Source: an uncultured SAR86 cluster bacterium
GTDB taxonomy: Bacteria; Pseudomonadota; Gammaproteobacteria; Magnimaribacterales; D2472
DNA length: 64,000 bases
Direction of reading: 5' to 3'
NCBI GenBank assembly: GCA_902594005.1
Contig: CACJKN010000002.1
Location: 3,639-67,638, forward strand
The notes beneath the pieces were generated by a model. The model saw only the letters and a list, made by a program, of their open reading frames with translations. It had not been told where the DNA came from and ran no database searches. Shown piece after piece: positions 2,885-51,249 of the stretch. Every line of letters begins with the position of its first letter. Positions within the stretch are counted from its first letter, which is position 1. A program made the position numbers and the translations under genes.

Positions 2885-3798
2885 ATATTTTGCACCTTAT
2901 CTTTAAAATTTAGATCAGCCATATAAAGAATACTTTGTAAATCATAACCCTTTGATAAACCACATAAAATATTTTTTGGACCAATTTCTATTAAGCATGA
3001 AGCGGAATTAGAAATTTTTTCCATAGTTTTAGTCCAAAGAACTGGTTGAGTTAGTTGATTTAGAAGATTTTGTTTAATTGAGGATAAATCAGTCTCAATC
3101 TCACCAGTATGATTTTGTATGATTGAATATCTTGGAAGAGAAAAAATAATTTTTTGGAGAGACTCATTAAATTCGTCTGCAGCATCAGTCATTAATTTGG
3201 TATGAGATGCAATACTAACGTTTAATTCTATGCATCTTTTTGCACCAATTCCTGGAAGTAAATTACTTGCCATTTCTACACCTTCAATATTTCCAGCAAT
3301 TACAGTTTGCTTCATAGAGTTATAATTTGCAGAAGCTACGTAAGCTTTTTCATTAGACTTATTAATTTGTGAACAAACTTCATCGATAATTTTTGAATCA
3401 AGTCCAAGTATAGCCATCATTTTACCTTCTTCAGAGCTTTGCATTAACTTACCTCTGAGATGAGTTATTTTTATGGCATCTTCAAAAGTTATTGATTCTG
3501 CAAACATTAAAGCTGAGTATTCTCCAAGTGAATGACCAGCTATTACTTTTGGGGTTGGTAAAGATAAATTTTTATATGCTTCTGAAAAAATGGCCGAAGA
3601 TAAGACCAGAAGCGGTTGAGTAAAAGTAGTTGAATTTAATTTAGACTCATCCTCTAAAATGCTATTAACATCATAACTTAGTATTTCAGATACAATTTCG
3701 ATCTTTTCATTTATGAAAGACTGATCAACCAAATCAGTTTGAAGCATTTCAGGATGTTGTGAGCCCTGACCAGGGAATACACAAGCTATGGAGCCCAT
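2881..3798 (-). CDS. fabD: Malonyl-CoA:ACP transacylase
   Basis: FPGQGSQ N-terminus and GHSLGEYSAL nucleophile elbow. 4-bp overlap with fabG. Confidence 0.9.
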   Translation of the reverse strand: MGSIACVFPGQGSQHPEMLQTDLVDQSFINEKIEIVSEILSYDVNSILEDESKLNSTTFTQPLLVLSSAIFSEAYKNLSLPTPKVIAGHSLGEYSALMFAESITFEDAIKITHLRGKLMQSSEEGKMMAILGLDSKIIDEVCSQINKSNEKAYVASANYNSMKQTVIAGNIEGVEMASNLLPGIGAKRCIELNVSIASHTKLMTDAADEFNESLQKIIFSLPRYSIIQNHTGEIETDLSSIKQNLLNQLTQPVLWTKTMEKISNSASCLIEIGPKNILCGLSKGYDLQSILYMADLNFKDKVQNI

Positions 3799-5155: not shown

Positions 5156-7132
5156 ATGAAAAGAATATTAATAAATAGTTCTTATAACGACGAATTACGT
5201 GTTGCACTTGTTGACGGTGCGAAATTATTTGATTTAGATACAGAAGTTACTGACAGAGTTCTATACAAAGGAAGTATCTTCAAGGCAACAGTTTCTAGAA
5301 TTGAGAAAAGTTTGAATGCGGCTTTTGTAGATTTTGGATCGAGTAGGCATGGGTTCTTACCACTAAAAGAACTATCAAGAAACTTTTACAAAAAAAATTC
5401 ACAAGGTAAATCAGAATGCACTCTAAAAGAGGGTCAAGAGATACTTGTTCAAATAAATAAAGAGGAAAGAGGCACTAAAGGTGCAACTTTATCAACTCAG
5501 ATATCCATAGCTGGCCGTTTTATGGTTTTAATAGCTAATTCTGATAAATCAGGTGGTATTTCAAGAAGAATTACAGGAGATGAGAGAGAAGATCTAAAAA
5601 ATCAGATCTCAAAACTAGATATACCGGAGGGCATGAGTGTGATTATTCGAACTGCTGGTATAGATAGATCATTTGAAGAACTACAAAATGACCTCAACTA
5701 TCTTATTTCTCTATGGGATGATATCAATGCTACACAAGCTTCAGCCGACTCGCCTCAATTGATTTACAAAGACGACAAGCTAATAGTTCGAGTTTTTAGG
5801 GATATTTTTCGAGATGATATAGAAGAAATTTTAGTGGATGATAAATCTGTATTTGAGGAAGCTAAAAATTTTGCTGAATTAGTTATTCCTGATCAAAAAG
5901 ACAAAGTAAAGCTATATGATGAAGAAATCCCTCTTTTTAATAGATATCAAATAGAATCACAGATTGAATTAGCTTTCCAAAGAGAGATTTCTCTTCCATC
6001 AGGAGGATCTATAGTTATAGACCCTACTGAAGCAATGACAACTATTGATATTAATTCAGCTCGATCAACTAAAGGTAAAGATATTGAAGAAACAGCTCTT
6101 AAGACAAACTTAGAGGCAGCAAAAGAAATTGCAAGACAATTAAGGTTAAGAGACGTTGGCGGGTTAATAGTTATAGATTTTATCGATATGCAAAATGAAG
6201 ATTCACAAAATAAAGTTGAGAATGCTTTTAGAAGAGCCGTATCGTCTGATAGAGCTAGAATCCAAATAGCAAGTATTTCAAGATTTGGATTGCTTGAAAT
6301 TTCTAGGCAAAGACTTAAACCTTCTTTAAACGAGACATATGACATAGAGCATGTTTTAGTTAGGGGGCCAAGATCAATTGGGCAATCTATTTTAAGAATT
6401 ATCGGTGAAGATGTTGCTAAAGATAATACAGCAGAAATACAGGTATATGTTCCTGCCGATGTTGCTAGCTACTTACTAAATGAAAAAAGAAGAGATATTC
6501 TGAGTATAGAGAATTCTACAGGTGTAAAAATCTTAATTATTGCTGATCCTTATAAATCAAGACCATATTACAAGGTAATAAGAATTAAAGATTCTGAAGT
6601 AAAGAAAAAATCTTCATATGAGTTAACTCCTGATAGTCCAAAACCAGATACTGATTGGAGAGATGAAAAATCTGGATCAAAGCTTAACCCGCTGGTAGAT
6701 GCCACTGACCATAAAAAGAATCATAAATCTGGTGGTGGTATTTTAAGCTGGATCAAAAGTTTAACTGCTTCACCGCAACCAAAAAAAACAACAAAGAAAA
6801 AATCTCCTCAAAAAAGACGTCCTCGCAAGGGAAATTATAAGAAAAAGAATGCTAACACCTCTAAATCTAGACCAAACAGAAAACCTTCTTCATCTAAGAA
6901 TACAAGAAGACCTTCTTCATCTAGGAGTACAGGAAGGCCTTCAAAGTCTGTTGATAGGAAGCCAAAAAATGACTCTAGAACAAAAGATACCAGAAAAAAA
7001 GCTCCATCAAGAAAACCTAGAGTAGAAAAAGATACTGCCAAAAAAATATCCGGCAGACAGGATATTGTTAAGGAAACAAAAAAGAAGCCTGAGCCCCCAA
7101 CTAGAGCTTTGAACGATCCTCGAGATAACTAG
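5156..7132 (+). CDS. rne: Ribonuclease E (RNase E/G family) with a short basic C-terminal tail
   Basis: MKRILINSS...ELRVALVDG N-terminus, S1 domain (GSIFKATVSRIEKSLNAAFVDFG), DNase-I-like/Zn-link region (TIDINSAR...GLIVIDFIDM). The tail from about residue 530 is K/R/P/S-rich. I prefer the ATG at 5156 (SD AAGGAG 5 nt upstream) over the track start at 5120. Confidence 0.85.
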   Translation: MKRILINSSYNDELRVALVDGAKLFDLDTEVTDRVLYKGSIFKATVSRIEKSLNAAFVDFGSSRHGFLPLKELSRNFYKKNSQGKSECTLKEGQEILVQINKEERGTKGATLSTQISIAGRFMVLIANSDKSGGISRRITGDEREDLKNQISKLDIPEGMSVIIRTAGIDRSFEELQNDLNYLISLWDDINATQASADSPQLIYKDDKLIVRVFRDIFRDDIEEILVDDKSVFEEAKNFAELVIPDQKDKVKLYDEEIPLFNRYQIESQIELAFQREISLPSGGSIVIDPTEAMTTIDINSARSTKGKDIEETALKTNLEAAKEIARQLRLRDVGGLIVIDFIDMQNEDSQNKVENAFRRAVSSDRARIQIASISRFGLLEISRQRLKPSLNETYDIEHVLVRGPRSIGQSILRIIGEDVAKDNTAEIQVYVPADVASYLLNEKRRDILSIENSTGVKILIIADPYKSRPYYKVIRIKDSEVKKKSSYELTPDSPKPDTDWRDEKSGSKLNPLVDATDHKKNHKSGGGILSWIKSLTASPQPKKTTKKKSPQKRRPRKGNYKKKNANTSKSRPNRKPSSSKNTRRPSSSRSTGRPSKSVDRKPKNDSRTKDTRKKAPSRKPRVEKDTAKKISGRQDIVKETKKKPEPPTRALNDPRDN

Positions 7133-7916
7133 ATATAAGCTGTCCCGAGATTGATAATTTAGGTGGCACATTCGGAAGGTCATCTATTTTGAACCATTTG
7201 GCATCCTCAAGTTCTGCTTCTTCTATTTTTATTTCACCTGATTCGTATTCACAAAAATATCCAAGCATTAGCTGACTAGGAAATGGCCACGGCTGACTTC
7301 CAAAATATGTAATATTTTTAACAGAAACATTTACTTCTTCCATAACCTCTCTTCTTAGAGCCTCTTCTGCTGTTTCACCAGCTTCAATAAAGCCAGCTAA
7401 AGTGCTATACCAGTTTTCAGGGAAAAATTTGTTTCTTGCTAACAAAACCTCGTCTCCTCTAGTAACTAGCGTTATTATGCAAGGCGAGATCTTTGGATAA
7501 ATAAATTCTTGATTGCAAGGTCTAACAAAAGCACCCTCTTTTTCTTGAAAGGATAATTTTCCAGAACATCGAGAACAGTATTTCGTTTCATCAATCCAAT
7601 GCACCAACTGCTTAGCAGTAAAAACAACTCCATCATTTTCTGGATTAAAGTTCGCTAAAGTTCTTATTTCAATTAATTCTGCATCTTCAGGTTTATTTAC
7701 TAAAGTTATGTCTTTTAAGTTAATCGCATAAATGTATTCATCTTCATCGTGAGAAATACCTATTCTTGCCATATCAATATCACCCTCTAAAATTAAATAA
7801 TTTGCATCAAATTTATAAGATTTTTCCGATTTATCGTATAAAATCTTATTTTCTGAAATAAAAATATATTTGTTGTTATTTAATTCAGAGAAATTTTTAA
7901 AACGAGACCTAGACAT
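7101..7916 (-). CDS. nudC: NADH pyrophosphatase (Nudix)
   Basis: Nudix box GFIEAGETAEEALRREVMEEVNV, NudC-specific SQPWPFPSQLM, and a Cys-rich zinc-ribbon segment CSRCSGK...PC. The 3' end overlaps the rne 3' end by 32 bp. Confidence 0.85.
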   Translation of the reverse strand: MSRSRFKNFSELNNNKYIFISENKILYDKSEKSYKFDANYLILEGDIDMARIGISHDEDEYIYAINLKDITLVNKPEDAELIEIRTLANFNPENDGVVFTAKQLVHWIDETKYCSRCSGKLSFQEKEGAFVRPCNQEFIYPKISPCIITLVTRGDEVLLARNKFFPENWYSTLAGFIEAGETAEEALRREVMEEVNVSVKNITYFGSQPWPFPSQLMLGYFCEYESGEIKIEEAELEDAKWFKIDDLPNVPPKLSISGQLISSYLEDRSKL

Positions 7917-48080: not shown

Positions 48081-48968
48081 TTAGAGGTCTTCAAGCAAGA
48101 ATGGAGCAGCGGCTTGAATCATTTTTGAGTTTTCATGGGCTGCATTTTTGACAACTTGCAACCGCCATCTAAATGGCATATTTAAAGAATCTGCAATGAG
48201 AACATTTCTTTCAAAATAACGAATACCCCTTTGAAATCTATTATTGCCCTGCTCTTTTGCACCTTTATCATTTCTTAATGAACCATCATTAGGGTCTGTA
48301 TCTTCATCACCAAGCATAATCGCTCCTTTGACAGATAAGAACCATTTGAGTCTATCTTCAGATATAGGCATGTCTTTTACACCATAAGGATAATTAATAT
48401 CTTTTAAAAAGGTATACCATCCAGCATTGGCCATAACCGCTTTTTCAGCCCTGGTATCCTGACCAAATAAAAGATATCTATGTACAAACTGCGATCCACC
48501 TGAGTGACCATAAATTCTATATGAGTTCTCCTGAATATCGAATTTAGACCTAAAATAATCAAATATTAAACTGATTGAATCACTTAGAGAGTTACTAGGA
48601 TTATTTTGAGGTTCCAGACAATAGCCCGAATACTCATATTCACAACTCCTTCCTTGAGCGAGTTTTTTATCAACAACAAGAGAGTTATAGGACGGAAAAG
48701 CTGCTTTATCAAACTTTGGTGCAATCAGAATAATATTTTTATTATTCGTATATTCATACCATTTTGTAAAATATGATTCGGCTGTCCTTGATGCGCCATG
48801 AATAACAAAAAGGACTTTAGTATCCTCATTAACCTCCTCCGGAAGCGAATAAAAGATTTCTATATCTGGTTTTGACCAAAGTGAGAACGTTAACTTATTG
48901 AAGCTGTCTGCCAAAGAAGAAAAAGAGATAAATAAGCAAACTATAGAAAAATACAATTTTATGCGCAT
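48081..48968 (-). CDS. Alpha/beta hydrolase (esterase / PHB-depolymerase-like), exported
   Basis: Signal peptide MRIKLYFSIVCLFISFSSLA (start at 48968 preferred to 49025). Nucleophile elbow GHSGGSQF. VIHGASR oxyanion region. Confidence 0.65.
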   Translation of the reverse strand: MRIKLYFSIVCLFISFSSLADSFNKLTFSLWSKPDIEIFYSLPEEVNEDTKVLFVIHGASRTAESYFTKWYEYTNNKNIILIAPKFDKAAFPSYNSLVVDKKLAQGRSCEYEYSGYCLEPQNNPSNSLSDSISLIFDYFRSKFDIQENSYRIYGHSGGSQFVHRYLLFGQDTRAEKAVMANAGWYTFLKDINYPYGVKDMPISEDRLKWFLSVKGAIMLGDEDTDPNDGSLRNDKGAKEQGNNRFQRGIRYFERNVLIADSLNMPFRWRLQVVKNAAHENSKMIQAAAPFLLEDL

Positions 48969-49006
48969 ATATGCATAATAAAGCAAATAATAATTATTTA
49001 CACACA

Positions 49007-50110
49007 ATGATCTTTGATAATTCATCCATCAAAGCGATTCATGAATCGCCCTACAAGTTTGTAATTTCATCCAGTGGTGGAGGAACTAATGCAATTTCTA
49101 CTTTAATGGGTGTGCCAGGTGCAAGCCAATCCATTTTAGAATCTTATGTGCCCTACTCGAGAGAATCTCTAGATATTCATTTAAACAAAAAACCTGATCA
49201 TTATTGTTCACAAGCAACATCGCTTCATATGGCATCATTGGCATATAAGAAAGCATTAAAGATATCCGATATTGATAAAAAATATCTATTTGGTATCGCT
49301 GTAACAGCCTCTTTGAAGAGTAATTACAATAAGCTTGGTGAGCATAGATTTCACATCGCCTTGCAAAACGAGAAACAAACTGTAGTCATCAACTGTGTTC
49401 TTGAAAAAAATATGAGATCTCGTGAAGAAGAAGAAAATTTATTATCAACATTTATATTAAATTTGATATCAAAGTCTTGTGCTTTAGAGTTTGAATATCC
49501 CCAAATATCTGATGAGATAGAAATTAGTGAAGTTCATGGAGAAAAAGATTGGATTGACCTAATTGATGACAAAGTCGGCTTTATCTCCAATACAGCAAAC
49601 AAACCTGAATTAATATTTCCTGGATCATTTAACCCTCTTCATAAAGGTCATCTTAAGATGAAAGAGGTCGCGGAAAGGAAAACTGGAATGGATCTATATT
49701 ATGAAATCTGTATTGATAATGTCGATAAGCCGCCATTAACTTTCTTTGAAATCTCAAACACAATCAATCAATTTGAAAATGATTCCTGGGTTTTAACAAA
49801 GGCTGGGAGATTTATTGATAAAGCCAAATTATTTGAAAATGCTACTTTTGTTATCGGTTATGACACCCTAAGAAGATTATTTAATGAAAAGTATTATGAA
49901 AATTCAAAAATCATGAAGGAAAATCTAATGATCTTTGATGACTTCAATATAAACTTCCTAGTATTTGGGAGAAAAGATTTTGATAAATTTAGATCTCTTG
50001 AAGATGTTGATATACCAGCGGAATTAAAACCCAGATTTACAGGTTTTGATGAAGATACATTCAGAGATGACATATCGTCATCAGAAATAAGGAAAAAGGA
50101 ATTAGATTAA
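49007..50110 (+). CDS. Fusion protein: PncC/CinA-C-like (NMN deamidase-like) N-domain + NadD-like nucleotidyltransferase C-domain
   Basis: N-domain: FVISSSGGGTNAISTLMGVPGASQSILESYVPYSRESL parallels PncC TAESCTGG...GSS..F..G.V.YSN..K. C-domain: FPGSFNPLHKGHLKM (the (T/H)xGH motif) and terminal ISSSEIRKK (the ISST.IR motif of NadD/NMNAT). Start at 49007 (MIFDNSS) or 48971. Confidence 0.6.
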   Translation: MIFDNSSIKAIHESPYKFVISSSGGGTNAISTLMGVPGASQSILESYVPYSRESLDIHLNKKPDHYCSQATSLHMASLAYKKALKISDIDKKYLFGIAVTASLKSNYNKLGEHRFHIALQNEKQTVVINCVLEKNMRSREEEENLLSTFILNLISKSCALEFEYPQISDEIEISEVHGEKDWIDLIDDKVGFISNTANKPELIFPGSFNPLHKGHLKMKEVAERKTGMDLYYEICIDNVDKPPLTFFEISNTINQFENDSWVLTKAGRFIDKAKLFENATFVIGYDTLRRLFNEKYYENSKIMKENLMIFDDFNINFLVFGRKDFDKFRSLEDVDIPAELKPRFTGFDEDTFRDDISSSEIRKKELD

Positions 50111-50301
50111 CTGTGAGGCGGTAATTTAGCTTCAACAAACCATTCGTGAACTCTCTTCACAGGATTAAACTTCTTAAGTCTGAGTTTAGTATTTTCTAAA
50201 ATAAATTTTCTAGTTTTAATTACAGTGTAGTGATAGGTGTGAGAATCACGCGTTTCACCTTCAGGAATTAAATATACTTTTGTTTGTTTTTTATCTGCCA
50301 T
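50107..50301 (-). CDS. rpmG: Divergent ribosomal protein L33 homolog (no Cys, stand-alone)
   Basis: MADKKQTKVYLIPEGETRDSHTYHYTVIKTRKFILENTKLRLKKFNPVKRVHEWFVEAKL aligns with E. coli L33 (...[48 protein letters not shown]) with a ~7-aa insertion. Start at the Met at 50301. Confidence 0.55.
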   Translation of the reverse strand: MADKKQTKVYLIPEGETRDSHTYHYTVIKTRKFILENTKLRLKKFNPVKRVHEWFVEAKLPPHS

Positions 50302-50343
50302 AACGTGCTGAATTATACACAAGAACTAGGAATTTTAAACAGA

Positions 50344-51249
50344 TTAAATGCTATTAATATAATTAAGACTGCCAAAAAGACAGGTATAACCCCTATTCGC
50401 TACTTTGACACCGACCTTATTAAGAATTTCCTTATGAATATCACTTTTTCCTTCTAAAAAATGCTTATTAAATAAATCTTTATTTGCTATCGTCAAAAAA
50501 GACCTAGAAAGAGACCCTGCAAGAATAATTCCACCTCCGTTTGAGAATGCCAGCGATAAGTCTGAGAGAGTTCTTGCAAAAGCTATGGTAAACATATTAA
50601 TTACCTCTATGGCATCATCGTCACCATTGAGAGAAAGAGAAAAGATCTCTTCTGACTTAACCTTATCTCCAGTCTTTATTTCAAACATTCTAGAAATTCC
50701 AGTACCTGAAATAACATCCTCTAAAACATTAAATTCATCACTGTTTATCTTTAGAAGAGATTTCAAAGCAGATAAGCCTAAGTTGGTGTTTCCTATCTCT
50801 GTTGCGATCACATTATTACCAGAAATCACTGATGCACCCAGACCAGTACCAGGCCCAATTACTAGAAAGGTATCATTAAAGGGCTCACCCTCTTTAAAAG
50901 TATCAAAATCATTTTCAGCGAATGTTCTGATACTATATCCAATTGACTCCCAGTCATTTAGCAAATAACAGGATTCTAGGTTAAATCTTTTTCTAATTTC
51001 ATCAGCATCTATTTCAAAATTCCTATTGGTCATCTTGATTGAATTGTTTACCTTAGGCCCTGCAACAGAAAAAACAATATTTTTAACATCTGCCTCAGCT
51101 AACAGCTCTGACATCAAATTATCAAAATCATTTAAGCTATCAAGTTCAGCTTTGTTTTCTGAAACAAAATCAGAATCTCCAATATTTGAATATGCGTATC
51201 TAATATTTGTTCCGCCAATATCAACAAGAAGAAGATTCTTATCTAGCAC
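50344..51249 (-). CDS. glk: Glucokinase
   Basis: LLLVDIGGTNIRYAY phosphate-1 motif, GPGTGLG, ILAGS. 301 aa. Confidence 0.8.
   Translation of the reverse strand: MLDKNLLLVDIGGTNIRYAYSNIGDSDFVSENKAELDSLNDFDNLMSELLAEADVKNIVFSVAGPKVNNSIKMTNRNFEIDADEIRKRFNLESCYLLNDWESIGYSIRTFAENDFDTFKEGEPFNDTFLVIGPGTGLGASVISGNNVIATEIGNTNLGLSALKSLLKINSDEFNVLEDVISGTGISRMFEIKTGDKVKSEEIFSLSLNGDDDAIEVINMFTIAFARTLSDLSLAFSNGGGIILAGSLSRSFLTIANKDLFNKHFLEGKSDIHKEILNKVGVKVANRGYTCLFGSLNYINSI

Follow-up and report, generated by a model that had tools for sequence, protein, structure and literature searches.

A stretch of 64,000 nucleotides (nt) of DNA from an uncultured SAR86 cluster bacterium (contig CACJKN010000002.1; hereafter the window) carries on its forward strand a complete open reading frame (ORF) of 379 amino acids (aa), at positions 48971–50110 including the stop codon. 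The predicted protein joins an N-terminal domain of the CinA-C/PncC fold, known from the nicotinamide mononucleotide (NMN) deamidase PncC, to a C-terminal NadD-like nucleotidyltransferase. Throughout the family the deamidase residues of the N-terminal domain are lost and its ligand-binding residues are kept, the transferase motifs are intact, and a gene for NAMPT lies close by in 14 of 28 viral loci. Judged from sequence, there is about an even chance that the fusion is an NMN adenylyltransferase equipped with a non-catalytic NMN-binding module.

By sequence comparison the gene was confirmed to be real, far beyond what chance would give: one search returned 2,034 homologues of the 379 aa protein at E ≤ 1e-3, and a second search, against clusters at 50% identity, returned 3,985 at E ≤ 1e-3 and 760 at E ≤ 1e-30. 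An earlier reading of the letters by a model (the sequence-only reading) had described a PncC-like/NadD-like fusion at this place. The ORF and every motif quoted there were found where that reading had put them; positions were verified for SSSGGGT, GSFNPLHKGH and ISSSEIR (Table 1), for PYSRESL (residues 61–67; 49151–49171) and for VTASL (residues 111–115).

The N-terminal domain is related to CinA

Taken alone, the SAR86 protein scored 15 bits against the Pfam model CinA (PF02464), below the gathering cut-off of 23.5. Among 88 diverse relatives, however, 52 matched this model at E ≤ 0.01 (best 1.9e-8), and a family profile matched the Agrobacterium tumefaciens protein AtCinA (2a9s) with E = 0.0017. 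A Foldseek search with the full-length AlphaFold model (predicted local distance difference test, pLDDT, 86.4; predicted template modeling score, pTM, 0.84) returned 21 CinA-family chains with probability 1.0 and template modeling (TM) scores, normalized to the target, of 0.65–0.72. These included 2a9s (E = 3.9e-6, target TM 0.68), 4ct8, 6mr3 and 5kol. Because relatives match the Pfam model, the profile finds 2a9s and the predicted structure matches CinA structures, the relationship is taken as real despite the sub-threshold Pfam score. The PncC-like call of the sequence-only reading thus holds for this region at the level of fold and superfamily.

The pTM of 0.84 for the full-length model suggests a defined packing between the two domains. 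In the linker that connects them, W194 is invariant within SAR86.

Deamidase residues are lost and binding residues are kept

The N-terminal domain was placed in register with PncC by aligning the family profile with 2a9s, and the register was verified on the conserved residues G46, S48 and Y58. Two hhalign runs against E. coli PncC agreed with it; hhalign matches of the family profile to the single E. coli PncC and NadD sequences were weak and local, and were used for register and not as proof of homology. Residues were then counted in the 88 diverse members and in 425 distinct members, and viral members were examined separately.

At the position of the general base of PncC (residue 67), the 88 members have Leu (66), Met (14), Ile (3), Phe (2), Trp (1) or Val (1), and none has Lys. 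Lys is likewise found in 0 of the 425 members, where Leu (230) and Met (175) together account for 405 and the other 20 are also non-Lys. Viral members have no Lys at this position and show the same residue signature as the rest of the family. The position of the nucleophile (residue 35) is variable, being Thr (54), Ala (19) or Ser (14) in the smaller set and Ser (193), Thr (192) or Ala (37) in the larger one, so that Ala makes up approximately 9–22% across both sets. The positions equivalent to E30, C32 and T33 of ESCTGG show no conservation. The ligand-binding residues behave differently: G50, S52, Y62 and R151 are each present in 88 of 88 members, and in 424, 421, 424 and 425, respectively, of the 425.

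Mutants of the characterized enzymes give these counts a meaning. The A. tumefaciens CinA mutants S31A and K63A lack activity, in support of a Ser/Lys dyad, and the alternative asparaginase-like mechanism of PncC likewise uses that Lys (PMC5384747). None of the E. coli PncC mutants S29A, Y56A, K61Q and R142A is active; NMN binding persists in S29A and K61Q (dissociation constant 37–125 µM), K61Q favors NMN over nicotinic acid mononucleotide (NaMN), and the response to NMN is gone in Y56A and R142A (PMC8231969). The family has therefore lost the catalytic pair of PncC and kept the binding pair, which on alignment is the pattern of a ligand-binding pseudo-enzyme. The sequence-only reading had remarked that ESCTGG is altered and, as its alternative, had considered a variant without catalytic activity; the missing Lys and the variable nucleophile position are in line with that alternative.

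The C-terminal domain is a NadD-like nucleotidyltransferase

The Pfam model CTP_transf_like (PF01467) matched residues 215–375 with 41.8 bits (gathering cut-off 21) and was matched by 87 of the 88 relatives. An AlphaFold2 model of this domain alone (pLDDT 88.6) gave 45 Foldseek matches at E ≤ 1e-3, nearly all of them bacterial NadD. The NadD alignments span the whole domain (182–189 columns, TM 0.5–0.6, root-mean-square deviation 4–5 Å, identity 14–22%), with 8aih at E = 1.2e-5 and 1kaq at TM 0.60. PPAT aligned over approximately 130 columns only, ATP sulfurylase also matched, and NadM (2qjo) was a weak match of the full-length model. Cut-offs of the NCBIfam NadD equivalogs were not reached (TIGR00482, 25.1 bits against 112.45; PRK00071 sub-models, 13–16 bits against 150–240), and these models matched only about 30 residues around HxGH. 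As with the N-terminal half, the NadD-like call made from the letters stands for fold and superfamily, in view of the Pfam score and the full-domain structural matches.

The H-x-G-H and terminal ISSSEIR motifs singled out in the sequence-only reading are intact: H224 and H227 are each present in 425 of 425 members, S370 in 423, and R374 in 409, with Lys in another 14. Residues invariant in the 88 diverse members are G218, F220, N250, K253, F281, K284, G296, D298, T299, R302 and R334; K253 is also found in 425 of 425. The motif NVDKPP, which contains N250 and K253, sits where NadD has NxxPPH(K/R), and by analogy it is presumed to contact the phosphate of the mononucleotide. From its motifs, the C-terminal domain looks like an active adenylyltransferase.

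Two other proteins were considered and set aside, as both are single-domain, lack a CinA-like domain and do not have this architecture: cyanobacterial NMN adenylyltransferase (NMNAT)-C (HxGH at residues 16–19; PMC13036487) and yeast Pof1 (H43...R227 in 258 aa; PMC13191266).

Viral relatives are often linked to NAMPT

Relatives with 25–34% identity are encoded in 28 IMG/VR loci, which include metagenome-assembled genomes (MAGs) of giant viruses and contigs of 150–450 kb. NAMPT (NAMPT_N and NAPRTase domains) was the second gene family to recur in these loci: it was found in 14 of the 28 (about 11 non-redundant), at 92–3,913 bp from the family gene, and extending the flanks to 10 kb added no further NAMPT-linked viral loci. 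The product of NAMPT is NMN, which needs adenylylation only to become NAD+. No other ORF in the viral loci carries a GxFxPxHxGH signature, and the Nudix proteins near the family gene there have neither HxGH nor a nucleotidyltransferase match. NadE was not among the recurrent neighbors of the viral loci.

In five viral loci (L103 and L111, also L101, L105 and L110) the two halves, CinA-like and transferase, are encoded by neighboring ORFs of their own, and all of the split loci are NAMPT-linked. The halves overlap by 4 nt in L103 (4953–5480 and 5477–6103) and are 7 nt apart in L111 (4443–4871 and 4878–5459); the longer overlaps in L101 and L105 could be frameshifts. Since the halves occur as separate adjacent genes in some viruses, this gene arrangement is a Rosetta-stone case, indicating that the two modules work together.

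Phage NAMPT and NMNAT are known to form a working pathway, as in KVP40 and NARP2 (bioRxiv 10.1101/2024.02.11.579819; PMC9503650). In a 2022 survey of viral NAD systems, NadM and NadR were the only partners of NadV, and NadV was commoner than either (PMC9503650). The same survey found no NAD+ salvage in eukaryotic viruses. On contigs that carry the label GVMAG (giant-virus MAG), NAMPT and the family gene are divergent neighbors at 3293–6194 of L090 (= L120) and at 2368–6287 of L097 (= L126), with 92 bp between the two genes in L120; if the binning is right, these loci would be an exception to the survey.

In L089 (6061–7128) and L101 (6002–6889), Nudix proteins are encoded between NAMPT and the family gene. 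Their N-terminal 170–220 aa start with 'GRFQ', reminiscent of the NadM/NatV NMNATs, and from sequence they may be degenerate NMNAT-Nudix proteins.

Proposed function and alternatives

In the proposed pathway, the C-terminal domain would adenylylate a pyridine mononucleotide, most likely NMN (NMN + ATP → NAD+ + pyrophosphate). Direct conversion of NMN to NAD+ without deamidation is considered the most likely route because the viral relatives adjoin the NMN-making NAMPT. The N-terminal domain would be a PncC-derived pseudo-enzyme that binds, but does not deamidate, NMN or a closely related compound, and that serves the transferase either as a device for substrate capture and specificity or as an allosteric sensor. 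In SAR86, the protein could recycle in one step the NMN freed by NAD+-consuming reactions, e.g. those of DNA ligase or NudC. In the viruses it would carry out the last step of a route, started by NAMPT, that leads from nicotinamide via NMN to NAD+, analogous to NARP2.

Several points weigh against this proposal. The alignments of the N-terminal domain with PncC are individually weak (E of approximately 0.002), although three are consistent with one another and tied to invariant motifs. This domain might conceivably have another catalytic residue as a substitute, and its ligand binding is extrapolated, by analogy, from engineered E. coli mutants. The structures nearest to the C-terminal domain are NaMN-preferring NadD enzymes, and the sequence is compatible with either NMN or NaMN. 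Moreover, the linkage to NAMPT is confined to viral relatives: within 10 kb of the family gene, NAMPT is absent from the window, from 80 SAR86 loci, from three Planctomycetota-type loci and from the genomes of two uncultured huge phages, which hold the only copies found among GenBank phages.

The sequence-only reading had favored a bifunctional enzyme, in which the N-terminal domain would convert NMN to NaMN and the C-terminal domain would receive the channeled NaMN and convert it to nicotinic acid adenine dinucleotide (NaAD). The two folds do correspond to PncC and NadD, the JGI automatic annotation names relatives 'NaMN adenylyltransferase / NMN deamidase PncC', and the nucleophile-equivalent residue of the SAR86 protein is Ser. 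However, both mechanisms proposed for PncC need the general-base Lys, which is absent from all 425 members, and its mutants K61Q and K63A are inactive (PMC8231969, PMC5384747); the nucleophile is replaced by Ala in 37 of the 425, and E30, C32 and T33 of ESCTGG have drifted. In addition, a virus that carries NAMPT and deamidates NMN would gain a dependence on NAD synthetase, for which the recurrent viral neighbors offer no NadE. The channel had been made conditional on a functional Ser/Lys pair; as this pair is not retained, the channel model fails on its own terms, and a true bifunctional enzyme is regarded as highly improbable.

Two further explanations, somewhat less improbable, concern the substrate of the transferase. 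The protein might be the main NaMN adenylyltransferase, or a dual NaMN/NMN enzyme, that replaces or is paralogous to NadD in the de novo and Preiss-Handler routes, the dead PncC domain sensing NMN or NAD+. Such a role would suit the best structural matches, which are NaMN-specific, and the presence of the gene in each of the 80 best-matching SAR86-type genomes, as expected of an indispensable function; nor was a canonical nadD seen in the approximately 1.5 Mb of SAR86 sequence checked, which consists solely of neighborhoods of the fusion gene. It is nevertheless rather unlikely, given that NadD equivalog scores are far under their cut-offs (e.g. 25.1 against 112.45 bits), that the patchy spread over SAR86, Planctomycetota and viruses looks accessory and not like universal housekeeping, and that the viral partner NAMPT yields NMN and not NaMN. 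The transferase could also act on another phosphorylated acceptor altogether, such as a flavin, a derivative of ADP-ribose, the precursor of a cofactor, or the end of an RNA or protein, and the CinA-like domain would then bind that other ligand. CinA-family paralogues with no assigned function are indeed known. The similarity to NadD structures is moderate (TM 0.5–0.6, deviation 4–5 Å) and extends to ATP sulfurylase and PPAT, the family has invariant residues of its own (N250, K253, K284, R302, R334), the E. coli CinA paralogues YdeJ and YfaY lack NMN deamidase activity (PMC3855486), and the bacterial gene context is uninformative. This explanation appears quite unlikely in view of NadD matches that cover the whole domain, where PPAT covers only the 130 columns, of GxD(T/S)L and ISSTxxR motifs that are NadD/NMNAT-like, and of the tight linkage to NAMPT, which points specifically to NMN.

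Building on NMN adenylylation as the preferred function, a wider proposal can be made, if somewhat tentatively. The family may represent an unrecognized third class of NMN adenylyltransferase, in which a NadD-derived domain is always partnered, by fusion or adjacency, with a PncC-derived NMN-binding pseudo-enzyme; it may supply the NAMPT partner that is missing from many uncultivated phages and putative giant-virus MAGs, and may serve SAR86 and Planctomycetota as a core enzyme of NMN recycling.

Comparison with known systems

With PncC and the C-terminal domain of CinA (PF02464; E. coli YgaD, A. tumefaciens CinA 2a9s), the family has in common the fold (target TM of approximately 0.7), the Gly-x-Ser, Tyr and Arg binding residues and the order of motifs. 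PncC has a general-base Lys and ESCTGG, whereas the family has a non-Lys residue (mostly Leu or Met), a variable nucleophile and (T/S/A)GGG(S/T), and is closer to the engineered NMN-binding probe PncC K61Q than to an enzyme. Inactive CinA paralogues (E. coli YdeJ, 5kol, and YfaY; the 'nonfunctional' CinA classes, PMC3855486) also combine the CinA fold with a lack of NMN deamidase activity, but these stand alone or occur as MocF fusions, and none has been described with a HIGH nucleotidyltransferase partner.

NadD (8aih, 1kaq, 1k4k) is the best full-length structural match, and shares HxGH, GxD(S/T)L, ISSTxxR and a length of approximately 180 aa. The family differs from it in its low identity (14–22%), the failed NCBIfam equivalogs and its own invariant NVDKPP, K284, R302 and R334. 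Unlike NadD, the transferase always comes with a CinA-like module, whether in the same protein or from the gene next door. The family is an uncharacterized variant of the NadD/NMNAT kind.

The viral relatives share with NARP2 and with NadV + NatV of KVP40 the adjacency to NAMPT, sometimes a Nudix gene, and the same gene-pair logic (bioRxiv 10.1101/2024.02.11.579819). In those systems the transferase is NadM-like and Nudix-fused, whereas that of the family is NadD-like, is joined to a dead-PncC module and has no Nudix domain. The SAR86 copy also differs in having no NAMPT nearby, and the family is absent from the NadM/NadR list (PMC9503650) and from PHROGs, which has no family for the fusion protein.

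NAD+ salvage has a central place in the physiology of bacteria and in the conflict between phage and host over NAD+ depletion. The family bears on NAD metabolism, on phage counter-defense and on marine microbial physiology, SAR86 being among the most abundant marine bacterial lineages. If the proposed function is correct, labels such as 'PncC' or 'NaMN adenylyltransferase / NMN deamidase' credit the family with a deamidation that probably does not take place, and would distort metabolic reconstructions of SAR86 and Planctomycetota. A third type of nucleotidyltransferase would be added to NadM and NadR among the partners of phage NAMPT, and NAMPT-based salvage would extend to putative giant viruses. 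The N-terminal domain would represent a natural conversion of an enzyme into a ligand-binding domain, parallel to the engineered PncC K61Q NMN sensor.

Distribution and annotation of the family

The two-domain architecture is widespread, and nearly all cluster members listed are 350–420 aa long and align in a single stretch. All of the 80 best-matching SAR86-type species genomes carry the gene, and the top 80 genomic matches are without exception SAR86 or related gammaproteobacterial species. Taxonomic spread beyond SAR86 was taken from the source names of the matches; named members outside SAR86 belong mostly to Planctomycetota (Pirellulales, Thermoguttaceae, Thermostilla, Pseudobythopirellula). 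The sequence-only reading had thought the fusion attractive for a streamlined genome. This rationale loses force, since the large genomes of Planctomycetota have the family just as commonly.

Annotations are inconsistent and include 'CinA family protein', 'nucleotidyl transferase family protein', 'hypothetical' and, at JGI, 'PncC'. No publication on the CinA-like/NadD-like architecture was found in the literature, and a 2013 survey of CinA architectures explicitly left such fusions out (PMC3855486). Five members of approximately 660 aa (P0155, P0341, P0357, P0375 and P0379) have an N-terminal TPR-repeat extension of about 280 aa before both domains. In BFVD, a 360 aa protein of an uncultured Caudovirales phage (A0A6J5RR79), annotated merely as 'Cytidyltransferase-like domain containing protein', matched the full two-domain model with E = 1.5e-23; partial matches were a Terrestrivirus protein and a Marseillevirus 'competence-damaged protein'.

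Gene start and sequence features

The true start of the gene is probably M13, since the first 12–17 residues vary among orthologues and overlap the divergent ORF at 48081–49025.

Table 1. Features of the fusion gene and its product; all positions refer to the window.
Feature	Position	Strand	Residues	Basis or remark
Complete ORF	48971–50110	+	1–379	379 aa; likely true start M13 at 49007
CinA-C/PncC-fold domain, predicted non-catalytic ligand-binding module	49022–49504	+	~18–178	Foldseek, family profile, Pfam of relatives
SSSGGGT loop, equivalent to ESCTGG of PncC; S35 aligns with nucleophile S31 of AtCinA	49067–49087	+	33–39	2a9s register
G50-A-S52 ... P61-Y62, PncC ligand-binding residues (AtCinA G46, S48, Y58)	49118–49156	+	50–62	Conservation counts
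L67 codon, PncC general-base position (K61 E. coli, K63 A. tumefaciens)	49169–49171	+	67	Three alignments agree
R151, equivalent to R145 A. tumefaciens / R142 E. coli	49421–49423	+	151	Conservation counts
Inter-domain linker with short beta-strand, helix and conserved W194	49505–49582	+	179–204	Secondary structure from full-length model
HIGH-superfamily nucleotidyltransferase, NadD-like fold	49583–50107	+	205–379	Pfam PF01467, domain-only model and Foldseek
GSFNPLHKGH, (H/T)xGH ATP-binding/catalytic motif (H224, H227)	49622–49651	+	218–227	Aligns with NadD GGTFDPVHYGH
NVDKPP, family-specific invariant motif (N250, K253) after strand beta-2	49718–49735	+		Conservation counts
GYDTLRR, GxD(T/S)L motif of NadD/NMNAT (G296, D298, T299, R302 invariant)	49856–49876	+		Relaxed hhalign, opposite NadD IIGQDSL
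ISSSEIR, ISSTxxR second ATP-binding motif (S369, S370, R374)	50072–50092	+	368–374	Aligns with DISSTKIR of NadD/NMNAT

Gene neighborhood

The window has a GC content of approximately 33%, and a SAR86-type MAG contig holds a copy of the protein that is 100% identical. Neighbors of the gene in the window are a PhoD-like phosphatase, a 314 aa protein, a weak L33-like ORF, a glucokinase and a GH3 glycosidase. No conserved NAD-related neighbor was found in the bacterial loci, and the Planctomycetota-type loci show nothing conserved. Canonical nadD, pncC, NAMPT and leuS-lptE-holA were not found in the window and the gene surroundings in 85 bacterial loci; a literature search found nothing on nadD in SAR86. 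Numbers of sites in a promoter and terminator scan were not above chance expectation, and a role as a known defense gene was rejected, PADLOC returning a chance-level Cas6 match only.

The sequence-only reading had placed nudC at 7101–7916 (−). The 271 aa protein encoded there has a strong NUDIX match (77 bits) and, with its CxxC zinc-ribbon-like motif and 'SQPWPFPSQ', is a candidate NADH pyrophosphatase of the NudC type.

In a subset of SAR86 lineages (L065–L079), a CobC-like histidine phosphatase with 27–34% identity to E. coli CobC is encoded approximately 1.3–1.9 kb downstream of the family gene, and a Pirellulaceae genome has a His_Phos_1 gene about 2 kb downstream (L084, 11265–11846). 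In E. coli, cobC adjoins nadD. The proximity of the CobC-like phosphatase to the family gene may be a coincidence. A glucokinase/ROK gene adjoins the family gene in SAR86 in convergent orientation (window 50344–51249 (−); L086, 9338–10243), and a ROK gene adjoins it divergently in the Pirellulaceae genome (L084, 6491–7567).

A 71 aa ORF at 50107–50322 (−) is convergent with the fusion gene, the stop codons overlapping by 4 nt, and is a weak match to ribosomal protein L33 (20.4 bits; cut-off 25). Another SAR86 lineage has a 64 aa ORF at the equivalent place (L086, 9107–9301). The divergent ORF at 48081–49025 (−), which encodes the 314 aa protein, had no Pfam match at E ≤ 0.001. Read from an internal M21, its start resembles a signal peptide, and it contains a 'GHSGGS' motif of the kind typical of alpha/beta-hydrolase esterases.

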